A DNA stretch of 64,000 bases from Poseidonia sp. (GTDB lineage: Archaea; Thermoplasmatota; Poseidoniia; Poseidoniales; Poseidoniaceae), in contig JAURAI010000001.1 of NCBI GenBank assembly GCA_030829545.1, forward strand, positions 4,123 to 68,122, in the 5' to 3' direction. The translations under genes were made by a program, and so were the position numbers. Below, piece by piece: positions 8,646-48,045 of this stretch (its first letter is position 1; every line of letters begins with the position of its first letter). The notes under the pieces were generated by a model. The model was not told where the DNA came from. It saw only the letters and a list, made by a program, of their open reading frames with translations, and did no database searches.

Positions 8646-8717
8646 GCGGATATGGTGAAGTGGTTATCATCTGAGGTTTCCAACCTTATGTCGTGGGTTC
8701 GACTCCCGCTATCCGCA
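8646..8717 (+). tRNA. tRNA-Gly (TCC)
   Basis: Acceptor GCGGATA/TATCCGC, D arm, anticodon arm TGAGG-TT-TCC-AA-CCTTA, T loop TTCGACT; no intron, CCA not fully encoded. Confidence 0.96.
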
Positions 8718-44154: not shown

Positions 44155-45174
44155 TCATTCCACCTCAAAAGATTCCAATAAACGGCGACATCGTTCTTTG
44201 GTCGCAAGACTTGTCAATTGGACGACGACACCCTGCCTTGGTTGACCGTAGACAACGATGGAACCAATGGGAGCAAGGAGATGTGCATACAGAGGGGCGA
44301 GGTCTTCTTCTCCTTCAACATCGATCAGGCAAGGTTCTTCTTCATCCACTGCTTGTTGAAGTGCCGTAAGAAGTGATGGTGTCAGTTGGCCCGGTGGGTT
44401 TTCAGCACGGAGGTGGCGAGAAAACGAACTGGCATCGACCCGATCCTCTTCAGCAAGATGTGTTCGTTTTGTTTGACCGTCAATCAATGCGATGTCGGGG
44501 GTGATGTCCATTTCTAACATGGTTCGTACCGTCACATCACCAACTGCGATCAACATATTTTGACCCAAAGAACGATCTTCTAACGCAGCATACATCGCTA
44601 CGTCAGGAGCATCTTCAGGGCCTTCAAACAAGGTCCCCATCGGCGTTTTAAGTTCTTGATCAAGGCCAGGATGCATCAACAAAACATTCTGAGACATCGA
44701 GGAACTTACCCATGGGTGACCTTCAGTGTCAATCTTCCCGTTCCGTATACGAGATGAACTGATGATGCCCCCGCAATGATCTGCAAGATGGTCGACTTCA
44801 ATGATGTGCAAAGGCGGTAAGTCATTGGAGGTTCGTAAGTCATTGATGTGCTCACATTGACCACGCGTCTCGGGGGTGGCAACGATGCAGTCGGCCGTGG
44901 GATGGTTGGGTGCAGGACCCTGCGCGTCGTTCAATTCAAACACGACTGCACGCCGAGGGGCATGCTGTTCAATCCACTGCAGGAGGTGCTCCCGTCGTGT
45001 TTCAAAGGATTCGATGTTCGCTGCTTTTGTGTCGGCCATGCGGTCACTGGTGATGTGAATTTCAAGATGAGCTGCTTGACGTTCAGCCGCACCAAGTAAG
45101 AGACGATGCCCCGCATGAAAGCGGTCAAAGGTTCCGCCGACCAAACATCGCTGAAAGCGGTAGGCGTCCTCCAT
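44155..45174 (-). CDS. coaD: Fused phosphopantetheine adenylyltransferase and GTP-dependent dephospho-CoA kinase (DUF359)
   Basis: GGTFDRFHAGH...ISSSRIR, then VGDVT, DGQTKR, NPPG, GEEDL, YGQP. Confidence 0.9.
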   Translation of the reverse strand: MEDAYRFQRCLVGGTFDRFHAGHRLLLGAAERQAAHLEIHITSDRMADTKAANIESFETRREHLLQWIEQHAPRRAVVFELNDAQGPAPNHPTADCIVATPETRGQCEHINDLRTSNDLPPLHIIEVDHLADHCGGIISSSRIRNGKIDTEGHPWVSSSMSQNVLLMHPGLDQELKTPMGTLFEGPEDAPDVAMYAALEDRSLGQNMLIAVGDVTVRTMLEMDITPDIALIDGQTKRTHLAEEDRVDASSFSRHLRAENPPGQLTPSLLTALQQAVDEEEPCLIDVEGEEDLAPLYAHLLAPIGSIVVYGQPRQGVVVQLTSLATKERCRRLLESFEVE

Positions 45175-45243
45175 GAGCAAAGGTTAGGACCAACAGCCTT
45201 TGAGGTCATCGCTACATGGAAGCATTGAGAAGAGGTTTTGGAA

Positions 45244-45442
45244 AACTGTGCCCCGACACCTAACGGCCTCGTTCATCGTTTCCTCGGAGGCCTGACCCTC
45301 GGCATCGGGGCGTTCTGTCCGGTAGGGTGGTTGTCTTGAGGTCATCCTCTCGTCGTCCAAGGACCCATAACCTACCGATGGTTTACCGCATTTGCACCGG
45401 GAATCACGCCCCGAAGGGTCATCCCAGTCTTCGATTTGCGGC
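45244..45442 (-). ncRNA. Three-hairpin archaeal box H/ACA guide RNA
   Basis: Three stem-loops, each with an internal pocket and apical K-turn/K-loop; ACA follows hairpins 2 and 3; G-U pairs fix the minus strand. Confidence 0.85.
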
Positions 45443-45451
45443 CGTACTCAT

Positions 45452-45519
45452 GGTGTCAGACGTCATAGCAATGTTTCACAGTAGCTCAGCCCGATGTTGC
45501 AGGTACGGTATCATCGCCT
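45452..45519 (-). ncRNA. Possible box C/D sRNA unit upstream of the H/ACA RNA
   Basis: C-like GCGAUGA, D' CUGA, C'-like CUGUGA, D CUGA in correct order. Confidence 0.4.
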
Positions 45520-45534
45520 CAAGACGACTCTATA

Positions 45535-48045
45535 TCACTTCATCGGTGGCTCTGATGCCATGTTGTGAGCGAAACTCCTCCCGAAGAGCACGCGCCCGAT
45601 GGCCTCGTCCCCGTGTTGCATGACAGTAAGCCCGAGCATTGGCCATGATTCAATCGGTTGAACGAGCCATGCCCCATCACCATGCGATGATAAAATGGGA
45701 ACAGGAAGTTGATGGTCTCGGGCATAAATAGCATCAAAGAGGTCTCGAAGCGGCCCGACGCCAGGACCTTCGGGCAACAAATGAATGCCCAGAAGTTCTT
45801 CCGCAGTTAATTGACAACCGGGATGGTGTATTTCTTGGCCGGGGAACCCACATCGTTCACCTTCTGTTCGACCGATGATTGCGAGCCACGGTAAGGGATG
45901 CGAACTCAGCCAAGCCCTTCCAGATACCGTATTCAATTGGTTCACAATCCATTCATTTCCATACGGTAGCCACCAAGAGGGGGGCAGTGAAGTCATGATC
46001 TGCCGTTGTAATTCTGTGGTCCATGGAAGGTTTTGGAGCAGAGCATCAATACCTCGGGACCAAAGGTAAAGCAACGATGACTTCGGATGGATGCGAGCGG
46101 CCTTAAGGCAGGTATCCAAGCGAGCATGTGTTGGCTGATGGTTTGCTGAAGCGAAGAGATGTTCAATGACCTCTACAGTCATGTGAGGCGTATCCAACCA
46201 GGAGAGAAGGGCTTGGTCAAACAGGTCACGATAGGCCTCATCGGCGAGATGAAGACTGGCCAAAAGCGCCGTTGCATACCAGGGTGCAATCGGTGATTCA
46301 TCGAGTGCTTTGGCGAATGAAAGGGTTACTTTTGGCTCATGTGGGAGGTTTGCCTTGAGGCGTCGCAAAGCGAGGGTTTGCCAGTGAAGCGTGCCTTTCG
46401 CAATAGCCTCTGGAAGGTCGACCAAATCAAGGGCATCGACCTTGAGCAAATCCGCCCATCCACTTGGGAGGTTTGGATGAAGGCGAAGCCATCGCTGAGG
46501 ACGTTCACTTTCAGGCGATGCAATCCATGCTGCCAGCGGATAGGTTGATTCGAATTCATTAGCCATACGAGCATCACCCTTCGGAAAGACATGAAGGCTG
46601 CGAGAAAGAGCGTCTCCTTGCCTTCCTTTCGGAAGTGGAGAAGTATACATTGTTGCCGTATTGACCGCTAAAGGAGCCAATAATTCTGCCGCATTGCTGG
46701 GCATGTATTCGCTGGGGGGCGAAAGAGGTTGTATGGATGAAGAAGGTGAATGGAGGATAACCGGCAGGGAAATATCTCGGCCGATTTGAGCATATACCTC
46801 TGCTAGGTTTGGAGACGTCACGAGATGGGTTGAGTCTCTCGATGCTGAATGCCCAGTGCCGCGGCGAGTCATGAACAACCTGCATTTTGGATGAAATGTA
46901 AGGCGTTGGTGGAAGTCCTCATCTGGTTCATCGAAGGGCCAGTCAACGACACATGGCCACTGTGATTCTTGAACCAAGTACGAGATGAGCGCCGATAAGC
47001 CACTCATGGACATCCCATAGGTATCGATGGTTCCTTCATTGACCTCATCAACGGACCAGTCAACATCTCCAAAGTCGGAAAAAATATCTTTTCTCAATGA
47101 TTGAGGGAGTTTTGAAGTATTCTTGAGCAAGTCGGAACGAATGGATTCGTACATCGCTCCAATCCGATCTTCAGACATTCGCGAATGACGGAGACCAAGC
47201 CAATGCCGAAGAAGAGGAATCGGAAGGTTGCGATCTCGGCGTCCCTGTCCGTCTGTTAGACAGATAGCTTGTGTTCCTAAGGCCTCGACGACAAGGGAGC
47301 GGTCCAATTCATGTGGCAAATGTGCGGTGATGCCGCTGGGAGGAAAATATTGCAGCGCCGTTCCTGAGACCTGCCCGAGACAATGGTCACCATTCATGAG
47401 AAACTGTGGCGGGGTAGGATGCTCGGAACTATCCGAGAACCATTGACCTTCTATCAGGGTGGTCAAAGGTGCTTGTTCGAGTACTTTTCCACGAGCGAGG
47501 CCAATCTTTGTTGGAGCGTTGCCAAAATCTGCAAGCGTCCCTGAGGTGGTTGCTGAAGGTGGTGTGGTCGATGAAAAATCATCCAACATGTACCACTTGA
47601 GTTTGTCAACCTGGAATAAAATCCATGTCCCCCCTTGATTTCCTGTGGAAATTTGACCTTGCGGATTCATGGCATCTGGGATGAAAAACAGTGAAGATTT
47701 CGGTGGTTTGACATAACCAAGAAGCACGTTTGATGATTCTGATTGGACAACCACTCCGTCGGTATTTGTAGGAATTTCACTCACATGGCGCTTCAATTTC
47801 TCCAAGCCATCGCTTTCCAAGCGCTCGAGTCCGCTTTGGCTGAGGTACATTGGGGCGTTTCGCAGCCCCCCTGATTCGTCTCGAATAACATAGCCCTCTG
47901 CACGTAATTGCCGGCATGCGAGCGAGGCGTGCGGCATTCGCATGTCGAATTGCTTGGAGATTTCTGAAACTGTGCTCGGCCCTCTGCTCAGCCAAAACAG
48001 GATCTTTCGATGTGCTGCCGAACGAATGCTTCCCGACGGCATCAC
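45535..48045 (-). CDS. Large protein with N-terminal winged HTH (ArsR/MarR-like)
   Basis: GPSTVSEISKQFDMRMPHASLACRQLRAEGYV; remainder unrecognised. Confidence 0.75.
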   Translation of the reverse strand: MMPSGSIRSAAHRKILFWLSRGPSTVSEISKQFDMRMPHASLACRQLRAEGYVIRDESGGLRNAPMYLSQSGLERLESDGLEKLKRHVSEIPTNTDGVVVQSESSNVLLGYVKPPKSSLFFIPDAMNPQGQISTGNQGGTWILFQVDKLKWYMLDDFSSTTPPSATTSGTLADFGNAPTKIGLARGKVLEQAPLTTLIEGQWFSDSSEHPTPPQFLMNGDHCLGQVSGTALQYFPPSGITAHLPHELDRSLVVEALGTQAICLTDGQGRRDRNLPIPLLRHWLGLRHSRMSEDRIGAMYESIRSDLLKNTSKLPQSLRKDIFSDFGDVDWSVDEVNEGTIDTYGMSMSGLSALISYLVQESQWPCVVDWPFDEPDEDFHQRLTFHPKCRLFMTRRGTGHSASRDSTHLVTSPNLAEVYAQIGRDISLPVILHSPSSSIQPLSPPSEYMPSNAAELLAPLAVNTATMYTSPLPKGRQGDALSRSLHVFPKGDARMANEFESTYPLAAWIASPESERPQRWLRLHPNLPSGWADLLKVDALDLVDLPEAIAKGTLHWQTLALRRLKANLPHEPKVTLSFAKALDESPIAPWYATALLASLHLADEAYRDLFDQALLSWLDTPHMTVEVIEHLFASANHQPTHARLDTCLKAARIHPKSSLLYLWSRGIDALLQNLPWTTELQRQIMTSLPPSWWLPYGNEWIVNQLNTVSGRAWLSSHPLPWLAIIGRTEGERCGFPGQEIHHPGCQLTAEELLGIHLLPEGPGVGPLRDLFDAIYARDHQLPVPILSSHGDGAWLVQPIESWPMLGLTVMQHGDEAIGRVLFGRSFAHNMASEPPMK

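Follow-up and report, generated by a model that had tools for sequence, protein, structure and literature searches.

A putative four-hairpin box H/ACA guide RNA of the archaeal order Poseidoniales, distantly related to HgcG

A conserved RNA locus between two minus-strand ORFs

The window analysed here is a 64,000-nucleotide stretch of DNA from Poseidonia sp., to which all coordinates below refer unless a 23S gene is named. It contains a structured region located between two minus-strand ORFs, the downstream one being a cytidylyltransferase-like/DUF359 gene (Table 1). In alignments of relatives, sequence conservation sets in at about position 45510 and ends directly after the final ACA, and the matches to our models R1 and R2 cover 45373-45510 and continue beyond it. 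A promoter-like block precedes this region, overlaps the stop codon of the upstream ORF, and is kept at the same position in the alignments. Since it lies at the distance at which archaeal TATA sequences usually stand upstream of the transcript start, we infer that this block is a promoter, and the strand and ends of the transcript given here are predictions as well. A similar block precedes the downstream gene.

Table 1 Features of the small RNA locus, in window coordinates
Feature	Position	Strand	Details
Upstream ORF	45535-48045	-	
Promoter-like block	45528-45545	-	CGATG, then TATA-like TGATATAG; predicted 5' end of the RNA about 26-30 nt downstream
Whole small RNA	45247-45510	-	About 264-265 nt; four tandem hairpins (HP0-HP3); ends predicted
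HP0 (5' hairpin)	45442-45508	-	Lower stem 45508-45503 with 45447-45442; internal loop; K-turn with GA 45487-45486, bulge 45467-45465, GA 45464-45463
HP0 5' pocket core GCAAC	45496-45500	-	Invariant in the order (alignments A3, A7)
HP0 3' pocket core ACC(A)	45451-45454	-	ACC invariant; A at least 90% conserved (A3, A7)
HP1	45386-45441	-	5' guide 45436-45429; 3' guide 45395-45391; K-turn with GA 45420-45419, CCC/GGG stem with UUCG loop, bulge 45408-45406, GA 45405-45404
HP2	45319-45378	-	5' guide 45368-45363; 3' guide 45334-45329; K-loop with GA 45354-45353 and GA 45343-45342
HP2 ACA box	45316-45318	-	16 nt after the first 3'-guide base; invariant in alignments A1 and A2
HP3	45250-45311	-	5' guide 45300-45293; 3' guide 45264-45261; 11-bp lower stem; K-loop with GA 45285-45284 and GA 45274-45273
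HP3 3'-terminal ACA box	45247-45249	-	15 nt after the first 3'-guide base; invariant in A1
Second promoter-like block	about 45212-45197	-	Precedes the downstream gene
Downstream gene	44155-45180	-	Cytidylyltransferase-like + DUF359

A preliminary description of this DNA had proposed a triple-hairpin RNA at 45244-45442. Its three hairpins (HP1, HP2, and HP3) lie where it placed them, but the RNA consists of four tandem hairpins and begins about 68 nt further 5'. The minus-strand motifs read as it described: HP1 has a K-turn (GA / CCC-UUCG-GGG / CGU-GA), while HP2 and HP3 have K-loops of the form GA-N6-GAUGA and are each followed by an ACA box, the last of which is followed by a G and a run of four U. 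The upper stems of HP0 and HP1 comprise 7 bp, a mismatch (U.C in HP0; U.C or U.U over both hairpins), and two G.A pairs, for a total of 10 layers. Those of HP2 and HP3 comprise 6 bp, a mismatch, and two G.A pairs; this makes 9 layers, with a tenth if the bases closing the pocket stack. The spacing rule given in PMC2377435 and PMC4652768 describes an upper helix of 5-6 bp and a GA stem of 10 layers and, as read from the sequence, the K-turns and K-loops of the locus stand at the required distance from the pocket.

Based on these features and on the comparative evidence given below, we propose that minus-strand 45510-45247 is transcribed independently, as a box H/ACA guide sRNA of this Poseidonia-like (Marine Group II) archaeon, a reading to which we assign a probability of about 0.87. 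Most likely, it guides the formation of pseudouridines at important positions of the 23S rRNA.

Structure, distribution, and expression

Taken on its own, the sequence folds in an ordinary manner. Its folding energy is not unusual (z = -1.18, with 27 of 200 shuffles folding as well), and its minimum free energy structure does not give the hairpins. This would be expected if the hairpins and rRNA matches were chance features of an intergenic spacer, a reading made exceedingly improbable by the covariation of the stems, the single copy found across the order, the unique rRNA sites of all four pocket cores, and the presence of the sequence in RNA libraries. Among 31 genus-level homologues, 97.8% of the alignment cells in the four-hairpin structure are paired, compared to 30.5-42.5% when partners are slid, and 25 of 60 pairs display changes on both sides, compared to 1-8 when slid; none of 500 shuffles reached any of these measures. 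For HP0 and HP1, an order-wide set of 33 sequences was available, in an alignment fitted to the model: 91.0% of the cells are paired (32.6-42.8% when slid), and both sides have changed in 28 of the 30 pairs. When no structure was supplied, RNAalifold recovered the same four hairpins, with 60 pairs, of which 24 are compensatory. Covariation across relatives had been put forward in the preliminary description as a check, and the outcome was clear: the stems vary and covary, and the pockets are invariant. Some rows were left out of the alignments: A1 and A2 exclude L009, L014, and L026, which are truncated by contig ends, and L030, which contains a run of N, while A3 excludes L108 (28-nt insertion), A6 excludes L100 (misplaced match), and A7 excludes L042, L098, and L095.

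A covariance model, also suggested earlier as a check across Marine Group II genomes, was run on 151 genomes of the order Poseidoniales, of which 147 gave a single full-length match each, covering 22 of 22 genera and three families. Of 126 genomes from elsewhere in the phylum, 21 gave weaker matches. In 24 of the 32 loci located through the protein, from both large families, the RNA lies on the same strand as the cytidylyltransferase-like/DUF359 gene and directly upstream of it. This arrangement would suit a structured 5' leader or cis-regulator of that gene rather than a free-standing sRNA, as would the RNA-labelled run X1, which covers the sRNA and both flanks at a depth of about 5. Nevertheless, we consider a leader very improbable. 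Conservation ends at the ACA, and the spacer that follows is unconserved except for the second promoter-like block. Homologues from outside the order are preceded by a TATA-like sequence of their own, and the K-turn hairpins, ACA boxes, and rRNA-complementary pockets also speak against a leader. In addition, RNA-library contigs from three metatranscriptome studies (248, 240, and 244 nt, with no mismatches) are confined to the sRNA. They extend from 45250 or 45253 to 45489, 45496, or 45500, bridging HP0 to HP3; as contigs, they attest presence rather than strand, expression level, or habitat, and their ends need not be those of the transcript. Small-RNA reads had been named in the preliminary description as a check, and the RNA-library sequences are in favour, irrespective of strand.

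The proteins of an H/ACA particle were sought in the genome from which the window derives, which is 73.7% complete. Three of the four partners named in the preliminary description scored above curated cut-offs: Cbf5 (319 bits), Nop10 (43.5 bits), and the L7Ae family (72 and 42.6 bits). The fourth, Gar1, was below threshold, its domain scoring 21.6 and 18.7 bits where the cut-off is 29.3, within a protein of 383 amino acids. In the most likely mode of action, the K-turn or K-loop of each hairpin would be the binding site of L7Ae, and the hairpin would also be bound by Cbf5-Nop10(-Gar1). The strands of the internal loop would then pair with the 23S rRNA sequences flanking a U-N dinucleotide, of which Cbf5 would convert the U to pseudouridine.

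Predicted targets in the 23S rRNA

No 23S or 16S gene was found in the window's own genome at this level of completeness, and the targets were therefore identified in congeneric species. We used the 23S genes of G008, G009, and G011 (the window's genus), and of G047, G048, G049, G051, and G052 (another family). The target strings of HP1, HP2, and HP3 are identical in all eight of these genes, which come from five genera of the order, and all three pockets display two-part complementarity around an unpaired U-N on same-genus 23S rRNA.

HP3 pairs around position 1893 of the G008 23S (E. coli 1915), in the loop of helix 69, through 4+8 pairs with no G-U. HP2 pairs around 2526 (E. coli 2555), in the A loop, through 6+6 pairs with one G-U; the site would be 2554 instead of 2555 if three bases stay unpaired. 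The preliminary description had proposed both sites, and both strings were found in same-genus 23S and mapped there. It had also proposed that HP1 targets the equivalent of 2496. This site likewise exists in the 23S (G008 2467, in the peptidyl-transferase region), but the pairing amounts to 4+7 rather than 5+7 pairs, with no G-U. For comparison, the minimum described for eukaryotic guides is eight pairs, with at least three per side (PMC7991803).

In 23S and 16S rRNA combined, there is a single full-length site for every conserved pocket core. Shuffled cores found any site in 21 of 2000 trials for HP1, 3 of 2000 for HP2, 193 of 2000 for HP3, and 127 of 2000 for HP0, indicating that the HP3 core alone is weakly specific. 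This test replaced a permissive scan that tolerated any G-U pairs and the trimming of one or two bases and proved too loose, with shuffled pockets scoring as well in 193 (HP0), 8 (HP1), 40 (HP2), and 39 (HP3) of 300 trials. For the variant HP2 pockets present in six genera, no convincing site was detected in 23S or 16S rRNA, the 16S being that of another genus. Confronting the pockets with same-genus 23S thus yielded targets at the equivalents of 1915, 2496, and 2555, and it is at these positions that we predict pseudouridylation.

A counterpart of known guide RNAs

A standard Rfam search reported nothing at the gathering threshold. Below it, HgcG (RF00064, Pab40) matched minus-strand 45242-45489 over model positions 1-276 with 23.1 bits (E = 1.7e-4). 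Because this falls short of the HgcG gathering score of 77 bits, the Poseidoniales sRNA is a distant relative of HgcG and falls outside the family under Rfam's own criterion. The full-length alignment to HgcG places pockets opposite pockets.

Like the guide RNAs described as Afu-4, Pf7, Pab40, and Pho40, the Poseidoniales sRNA has three tandem K-turn/K-loop hairpins in the same order, and it shares with Afu-4, Pf7, and Pab40 the same three 23S sites, served by motifs in a fixed order. Motif 1 of Pab40 makes pseudouridine at P. abyssi 2588 and its motif 3 acts in stem-loop 69 (PMC2377435), while motif 2 of Afu-4 acts at A. fulgidus 2601, equivalent to P. abyssi 2647 (PMC2377435, PMC4652768). 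By a constant offset of 92, P. abyssi 2588 and 2647 are E. coli 2496 and 2555. For motif 3, the equivalence holds at the level of the helix 69 loop, P. abyssi 2016 being one of its two conserved uridines. According to the same two sources, the equivalents of our predicted sites are modified in P. abyssi and A. fulgidus. The sRNA is therefore a counterpart of a described family and not a new kind of guide, which makes it less novel than the preliminary description implied.

There are also differences. The Poseidoniales sRNA carries a fourth hairpin at its 5' end that is not part of the HgcG model, whose first 57 positions are unstructured. In addition, its HP1 lacks an ACA at 14-15 nt, its guide lengths differ from those of Afu-4, Pf7, and Pab40, and its hosts belong to a mesophilic planktonic order, whereas those RNAs come from hyperthermophiles. 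Another multi-hairpin guide, sR-h45 of Haloferax volcanii, likewise addresses the helix 69 loop (H. marismortui 1956 and 1958) together with a domain V site (PMC4652768, PMC5029457). As described there, it consists of two hairpins, a single one of which addresses both uridines in helix 69, and its site in domain V differs from those predicted here. In a literature search of limited coverage, we found no report joining Poseidoniales or Marine Group II with H/ACA RNAs.

Three-hairpin homologues were found at ten loci in other genomes of the phylum (L121-L130). They share the hairpin order, the 3' ACA, and the pocket cores (UCGAAG/GCAA, GGGUC/ACAACC, and GGGUCA/GUUA). These loci start at HP1, right after the TATA-like sequence, and have no HP0.

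Loss of the HP1 ACA box

In nine of these ten homologues, HP1 is followed by an ACA 14 nt after the first 3'-guide base. Inside the order, an ANA at 13-16 nt was found in only one of 34 sequences, suggesting that the ACA box of HP1 was lost in Poseidoniales. Meanwhile, the HP1 pocket core is invariant in the 33 sequences of A3, and L108 also reads CGAAG/GCAA. The preliminary description had ranked HP1 as the least certain hairpin, for having only an AAA at a spacing of 11 nt. Triplet and spacing are as it reported, and the AAA is not conserved, but the missing box is an order-wide trait rather than a weakness of this copy.

According to published rules, Cbf5 binding requires an ANA box at a distance of 14-16 nt (PMC2377435, PMC7991803). 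HP2 and HP3 have such a box, while HP1 and HP0 do not, and both of the latter would thus have to work without the ACA-PUA anchor. Presumably, they would be positioned by the K-turn-L7Ae-Nop10 contact through the 10-layer upper stem. Comparable RNAs are the H/ACA-like guides of Pyrobaculum, in which the canonical lower stem and ACA are reported to be missing (Bernick et al. 2012, as presented in PMC4652768 and PMC7991803). As described in these sources, they resemble HP0 and HP1 in having a K-turn hairpin with the pocket under a 10-layer GA stem and no ACA anchor. They are single motifs from Crenarchaea, whereas the box-less hairpins of Poseidoniales keep their lower stem and are fused to two canonical ACA hairpins.

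HP0, an additional hairpin at the 5' end

HP0 appears to have been added at the 5' end of the RNA in Poseidoniales. Model R3 detected it in the window's own genome and in all 24 further Poseidoniales genomes examined, always beside HP1. Among 126 other genomes of the phylum it gave only chance-level matches (12 genomes, E of 0.002-0.1), and the five of these 12 that were inspected had mismatched stems. Model R2, applied to the ten loci outside the order, returned only a partial HP1 match and two weak matches. A second match of 27 bits in G070 is devoid of the HP0 pocket core. Order-wide, HP0 displays changes on both sides in six of six lower-stem pairs and six of seven upper-stem pairs.

Precisely the bases that can pair with 23S 2574-2576 and 2579-2583 (G008) are conserved in the HP0 pocket. 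Its 5' core is complementary to the GUUGC just 3' of the U-U at 2577-2578, and ACC of its 3' core pairs with the GGU directly 5' of U2577, the equivalent of E. coli 2606. The corresponding string in helix 93 was confirmed in seven of the eight 23S genes, and this U is equivalent to P. abyssi 2698, which is described in PMC2377435 as frequently pseudouridylated in eukarya. The site is the only one in rRNA for the core, but it comprises only 3+5 pairs and was found by shuffled cores in 6.4% of trials. That HP0 guides position 2606 is a tentative proposal, to which we give somewhat less than even odds. Beyond 23S and 16S rRNA, the search covered 37 tRNAs, in which no HP0 target was found, and the genome as a whole, in which the 4+5 core has 11 sites against about six by a rough chance estimate. 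An earlier candidate site at 2608/2610 was rejected; it lies in a variable 23S region and had been obtained with pocket limits that were later redrawn from the order-wide alignment.

The near-invariant fourth base of the 3' core, an A, faces an A in the 23S target and is left unexplained by that site. Together with the weak rRNA match, this base points to another function, in which HP0 would be an L7Ae-binding K-turn domain serving assembly, folding, 5'-end protection, or stability, and its invariant loop bases would contact protein or a neighbouring hairpin instead of rRNA. Such a domain might compensate for the loss of the HP1 ACA, with which the gain of HP0 coincides in the same order. The lack of an ANA box 3' of the hairpin, seen in the sequence and in the alignment of relatives, agrees with a non-guide role, as do the HP0 and HP1 lower stems, which abut without a linker in the window's genus. 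In the second large family of the order, however, this linker measures 3-7 nt, so strict coaxial stacking is not conserved. Furthermore, the HP0 loop, which lies beneath a GA stem of 10 layers, matches a pseudouridylation pocket in its geometry, like that of HP1, and its conserved bases are the complement of one conserved 23S site adjoining known modification sites. On balance, the odds of a non-guide domain come close to even.

We also considered whether HP0 could be a methylation guide of the box C/D type joined to an H/ACA RNA, since a composite form of this kind is reported for Pab21 (PMC2377435). The strands of the K-turn resemble D-like CUGA and C-like AUGAYG boxes, and Rfam C/D families gave weak matches (sR12, 12.4 bits; sR32, 11 bits), although at E-values of 2-4.5. 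HP0 has one box pair and one K-turn only, and the stretch 5' of the CUGA, where the guide would lie, is paired in a covarying stem. The GAUGAUA located 5' of HP0 in the window is not kept in relatives, which have no conserved terminal C box. A box C/D sRNA would have terminal C (RUGAUGA) and D (CUGA) boxes, internal C'/D' boxes, and unpaired guides of 10-12 nt 5' of D/D', a set that HP0 does not show, and we rejected this assignment as highly improbable.

If HP0 is instead a working fourth guide unit for the 2606 equivalent, with both HP0 and HP1 acting without an ACA box, the two hairpins would be positioned by the K-turn-L7Ae-Nop10 contact or by Cbf5 at the neighbouring hairpin. This combined reading is possible, but we regard it as rather doubtful. 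Were it true, the RNA would be the first four-unit archaeal H/ACA RNA, and a natural euryarchaeal case of ACA-independent guide hairpins beside canonical ones in one transcript.

Implications for the ribosome of Poseidoniales

Poseidoniales (Marine Group II) are abundant archaea of the surface ocean with no cultured member, and we know of no RNA-modification data for them. The sRNA is missed by standard Rfam annotation, and the models built here would allow it to be annotated throughout the order. The gain of a box-less hairpin and the loss of an ACA box next to an unchanged pocket amount to a natural test of the need for the ACA-PUA anchor. For the organisms themselves, three pseudouridines, and perhaps a fourth, are predicted from the sRNA at the ribosomal core where tRNA binding and peptidyl transfer take place. 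One multi-hairpin guide would serve the same three sites from hyperthermophiles to mesophilic plankton, which argues for an old, conserved core set of ribosomal pseudouridines.

Locus and annotation

The small RNA, a putative H/ACA guide RNA, occupies a 354-nt gap between two minus-strand ORFs. The preliminary description had read three hairpins here as an unannotated H/ACA guide RNA. The minus-strand sequence bears out all three at the positions assigned to them, including the K-turn of HP1, the K-loops of HP2 and HP3 with an ACA at 15-16 nt, and the presence of only an AAA, at 11 nt, downstream of HP1. Conservation in the alignment extends upstream of HP1 to about 45510, over a fourth hairpin, HP0.

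Coordinates of the small RNA and its surroundings in the window
Feature	Position	Strand	Description
Upstream ORF	45535-48045	minus	836 aa
CGATG + TATA-like block	45545-45528	minus	conserved across the order, about 26-30 nt before the first stem
HP0 lower stem	45508-45503 with 45447-45442	minus	followed by an internal loop
HP1	45441-45386	minus	K-turn: GA, CCC/GGG stem with UUCG loop, CGU bulge, GA
HP2	45378-45319	minus	GA-N6-GAUGA K-loop; ACA 16 nt past first base of 3' pocket strand
HP3	45311-45250	minus	GA-N6-GAUGA K-loop; ACA 15 nt past first base of 3' pocket strand
Similar block	about 45212-45197	minus	precedes the downstream gene
Downstream ORF	44155-45180	minus	cytidylyltransferase-like domain fused to DUF359

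The RNA is indeed unannotated: a scan of Rfam at curated thresholds gave nothing at this position, the sole match in the window being a tRNA at 8646-8717. A permissive scan returned a single meaningful match, to the H/ACA family HgcG (Pab40), whose RNAs have three hairpins. It covered the whole model at 45242-45489 on the minus strand with 23.1 bits (E = 1.7e-4), where the gathering score is 77. In a Pfam search, the only matches of the upstream ORF's product were weak N-terminal winged-helix ones of ArsR and MarR type, which at 17-18 bits fall short of the cut-offs.

Structure and distribution

Folded as a single sequence, the stretch is ordinary (z = -1.18). In an alignment of 35 copies, the pocket strands are constant, changes in the stems are compensatory and similarity stops at the last ACA. 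Four rows were dropped for the structure test, leaving 31 full-length copies, in which the four-hairpin structure paired 97.8% of 1797 cells, compared to 30.5-42.5% when partners were slid by 1-3 columns. The covariation named as a check in the preliminary description is present: 25 of 60 pairs changed on both sides, compared to 1-8 when slid, and 0/500 shuffles matched any of the five structure measures. RNAalifold, given the alignment as its sole input, recovered the same hairpins with 60 pairs, 24 of them compensatory, and added three invariant pairs within the HP2 pocket.

Within the genus, BLAST detected the stretch in 34 of 36 further genomes; in a second family it did so in 0/2 and in a third in 1/22. 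A covariance model, as proposed in the preliminary description, was built from HP2 and HP3 (R1) and found a single full-length copy in 147 of the 151 genomes sampled from Poseidoniales, representing 22/22 genera and three families. Across the phylum, R1 matched 46/151 genomes, namely all 25 of the order and 21 of the 126 others (at 22-58 bits). The closest relatives of the downstream protein (86-90% identity) are from Candidatus Poseidoniales or Poseidonia sp., and remoter ones include Candidatus Thalassarchaeaceae, which bears out the attribution to MGII in the preliminary description. Among 32 loci found through this protein, 24 carried the small RNA directly upstream on the same strand; the eight lacking it comprised a Thermoplasmatota MAG and seven records whose titles do not name Poseidoniales.

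Predicted targets and relation to known guide RNAs

Since no rRNA genes were found in the genome of the window (73.7% complete), targets were read on the 23S rRNA of G008, another species of the genus. The predicted sites are 1893 for HP3 (4+8 pairs, no G-U), 2526 for HP2 (6+6 pairs, one G-U) and 2467 for HP1 (4+7 pairs, no G-U), which correspond to E. coli 1915, 2555 and 2496 in an alignment to the annotated E. coli 23S. All three target strings given in the preliminary description occur in this 23S, but HP1 lacks the fifth pair it had been given (4+7, not 5+7). Across five genera, 8/8 23S genes carry the strings unchanged. When reduced to the pocket core conserved order-wide, HP1, HP2 and HP3 each have exactly one full-length site in 23S and 16S, while composition-matched shuffled cores found any site in 21/2000 (HP1), 3/2000 (HP2) and 193/2000 (HP3) trials. 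In the second large family, one pair of HP3 moves from the 5' to the 3' guide and the same U is bracketed. A register of HP2 with three unpaired bases would aim at 2554 instead of 2555.

Within the second large family, six genera have variant HP2 pockets (loci L098, L102, L104, L106, L108, L109, L110, L114 and L115). Both strands differ together, reading xAGGUC and ACUACC (ACCACC in two) versus AUGGGUC and ACAACC. The A-loop of the 23S of this family is unaltered in genomes G047 and G048. As a search for a convincing new rRNA site for the variant pockets found none, HP2 may have been retargeted in these genera.

To relate these sites to characterized guides, we take the E. coli positions of the RluE, RluB and RluC sites to be 2457, 2605 and 2580. 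The guide RNA Pab35 makes the pseudouridines that these enzymes make in E. coli, at P. abyssi 2549, 2697 and 2672 (PMC2377435). With these E. coli positions, the offset between P. abyssi and E. coli is 92 at all three points; hence, P. abyssi 2588 equals E. coli 2496, and 2647 equals 2555. Pab40, Pf7, Pho40 and Afu-4 have three motifs each (Muller et al. 2008, PMC2377435). According to that study, position 2588 of P. abyssi 23S is pseudouridylated by Pab40 motif 1, motif 3 targets 2016 within stem-loop 69, and Afu-4 motif 2 was proposed to act on A. fulgidus 2601, the counterpart of P. abyssi 2647. Toffano-Nioche et al. 2015 (PMC4652768) kept Af4.2b at L2601 and Af4.3, which is related to Pa40.3, at L1970. 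By this equivalence of sites, HP1, HP2 and HP3 are predicted to aim at the same sites as motifs 1, 2 and 3 of the Pab40/Afu-4 family. The reading as an H/ACA guide is upheld at the sequence level, and the small RNA is, judged by its predicted targets, an orthologue of HgcG-type RNAs and not a new kind. According to a review, archaeal H/ACA RNAs have one hairpin, rarely two or three (PMC7991803). In the library searched, no paper was found that mentions "H ACA" together with "Poseidoniales" or "Marine Group II".

Protein machinery

Cbf5 (319 bits), Nop10 (43.5 bits) and two L7Ae-family proteins (72 and 42.6 bits) are encoded in the window's genome above curated cut-offs. Gar1, the remaining protein named in the preliminary description, gave weak domain matches in this 73.7% complete genome, scoring 21.6 and 18.7 bits where the cut-off is 29.3. 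A single Gar1-like gene was detected, outside the window (L052:1426-2577, plus strand; contig C3, about 137853-139004). Its 383-aa product starts with the weak Gar1 domain (18.7 bits, under the cut-off) and further carries long repeats rich in Gly and Arg along with two zinc ribbons of the RanBP2 type (63 bits). This architecture recalls the GAR domains of eukaryotic Gar1 and is unusual for archaea.

Expression and putative transcription signals

The stretch, or part of it, occurs in 24 sequencing runs, 15 of which are on record as RNA. Four runs were examined. Three, from three studies, each yielded one whole contig with zero mismatches (248, 240 and 244 nt; 45253-45500, 45250-45489 and 45253-45496), with a word depth of 16-22 and nothing on the flanks; in the fourth (X1), the RNA and both flanks were covered at a depth of about 5. 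These contigs, which carry no strand information, are a weak hint of a discrete RNA. They do place HP0 on the same molecule as HP1-HP3.

The block upstream of HP0, which overlaps the stop codon of the upstream ORF, and the one before the downstream gene share a recurring form (CGATG-N3-4-TTSAWAW-like), probably the local BRE/TATA form. The two blocks would fit two separate transcription units, one for the small RNA and one for the downstream gene. The likely start of the latter, an ATG at 45174, is close to its TATA-like block, which suggests a leaderless mRNA.

A fourth hairpin and the loss of ACA at HP1

The upper part of HP0 comprises a 7-bp stem, a U.C pair and two G.A pairs, making 10 layers as in HP1, and its K-turn is of the same type. 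Each of 34 diverse sequences, which represent 22 genera, contains HP0. In a model-fitted alignment of HP0 and HP1 (33 sequences), 91.0% of cells were paired, compared to 32.6-42.8% when slid, and 28 of 30 pairs changed on both sides (6/6 in the lower and 6/7 in the upper stem of HP0), which 0/500 shuffles reached. In the loop, GCAAC on the 5' side and ACC on the 3' side never vary, and the A next to ACC shows at least 90% conservation. R3, a model built on HP0 only, located this hairpin in 24/24 genomes of the order as well as in that of the window, always adjoining HP1. Outside the order, 12/126 genomes of the phylum had matches at E 0.002-0.1, the chance expectation; the stems were mismatched in the five inspected. 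Ten homologues from outside the order start at HP1, directly after a TATA-like sequence. A second HP0-like match in one genome of the genus (G070:C32:92-168, 27.2 bits, near the contig start) lacked the GCAAC core and a clear K-turn and is probably spurious.

The apical loop of HP0 is longer in the second large family (L096-L109 and related loci), where a conserved C-rich run followed by CGCCGGAG could form a small extra stem above the K-turn. The window's family has ACUGUGAAA at that position.

The invariant core of HP0 has one full-length rRNA site, G008 23S 2577 (E. coli 2606, helix 93), pairing as GGU/ACC and GUUGC/GCAAC around an unpaired U-U (3+5 pairs, no G-U). In favour of a guide role, the conserved guide bases of HP0 are exactly those that pair, and eight pairs, with no fewer than three on either side, are the minimum described for eukaryotic guides (PMC7991803). 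The site equals P. abyssi 2698, described as frequently pseudouridylated in eukarya, and the neighbouring 2697 is modified in P. abyssi (PMC2377435). This reading is countered by the shuffled core, which found some site in 127/2000 trials, by the conserved A after ACC, which it leaves unexplained, and by the lack of an ANA box downstream of HP0. The core had no site among 37 tRNAs, and its genome-wide matches were near chance. On balance, a guide function of HP0 is somewhat less likely than not, and a role as an accessory K-turn domain is marginally more probable, yet also short of an even chance.

The gain of HP0 falls on the same branch as the loss of ACA at HP1. Of ten homologues from outside the order, nine place an ACA exactly 14 nt past the base that opens the 3' guide of HP1; within the order, only 1/34 has an ANA of any kind 13-16 nt away. 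Despite this loss, the HP1 pocket core is invariant in the 33 aligned sequences and reads CGAAG/GCAA in L108 (G101:C8) as well, which argues that HP1 is under selection in the order and presumably active without a canonical ACA anchor. At L108, in one genus, the loop above the K-turn of HP1 is enlarged by an insertion of about 28 nt.

The small RNA of Poseidoniales belongs, as a distant member, to a known family and has been overlooked by standard annotation; two departures are specific to the order, a fourth hairpin without a box and an HP1 without ACA.
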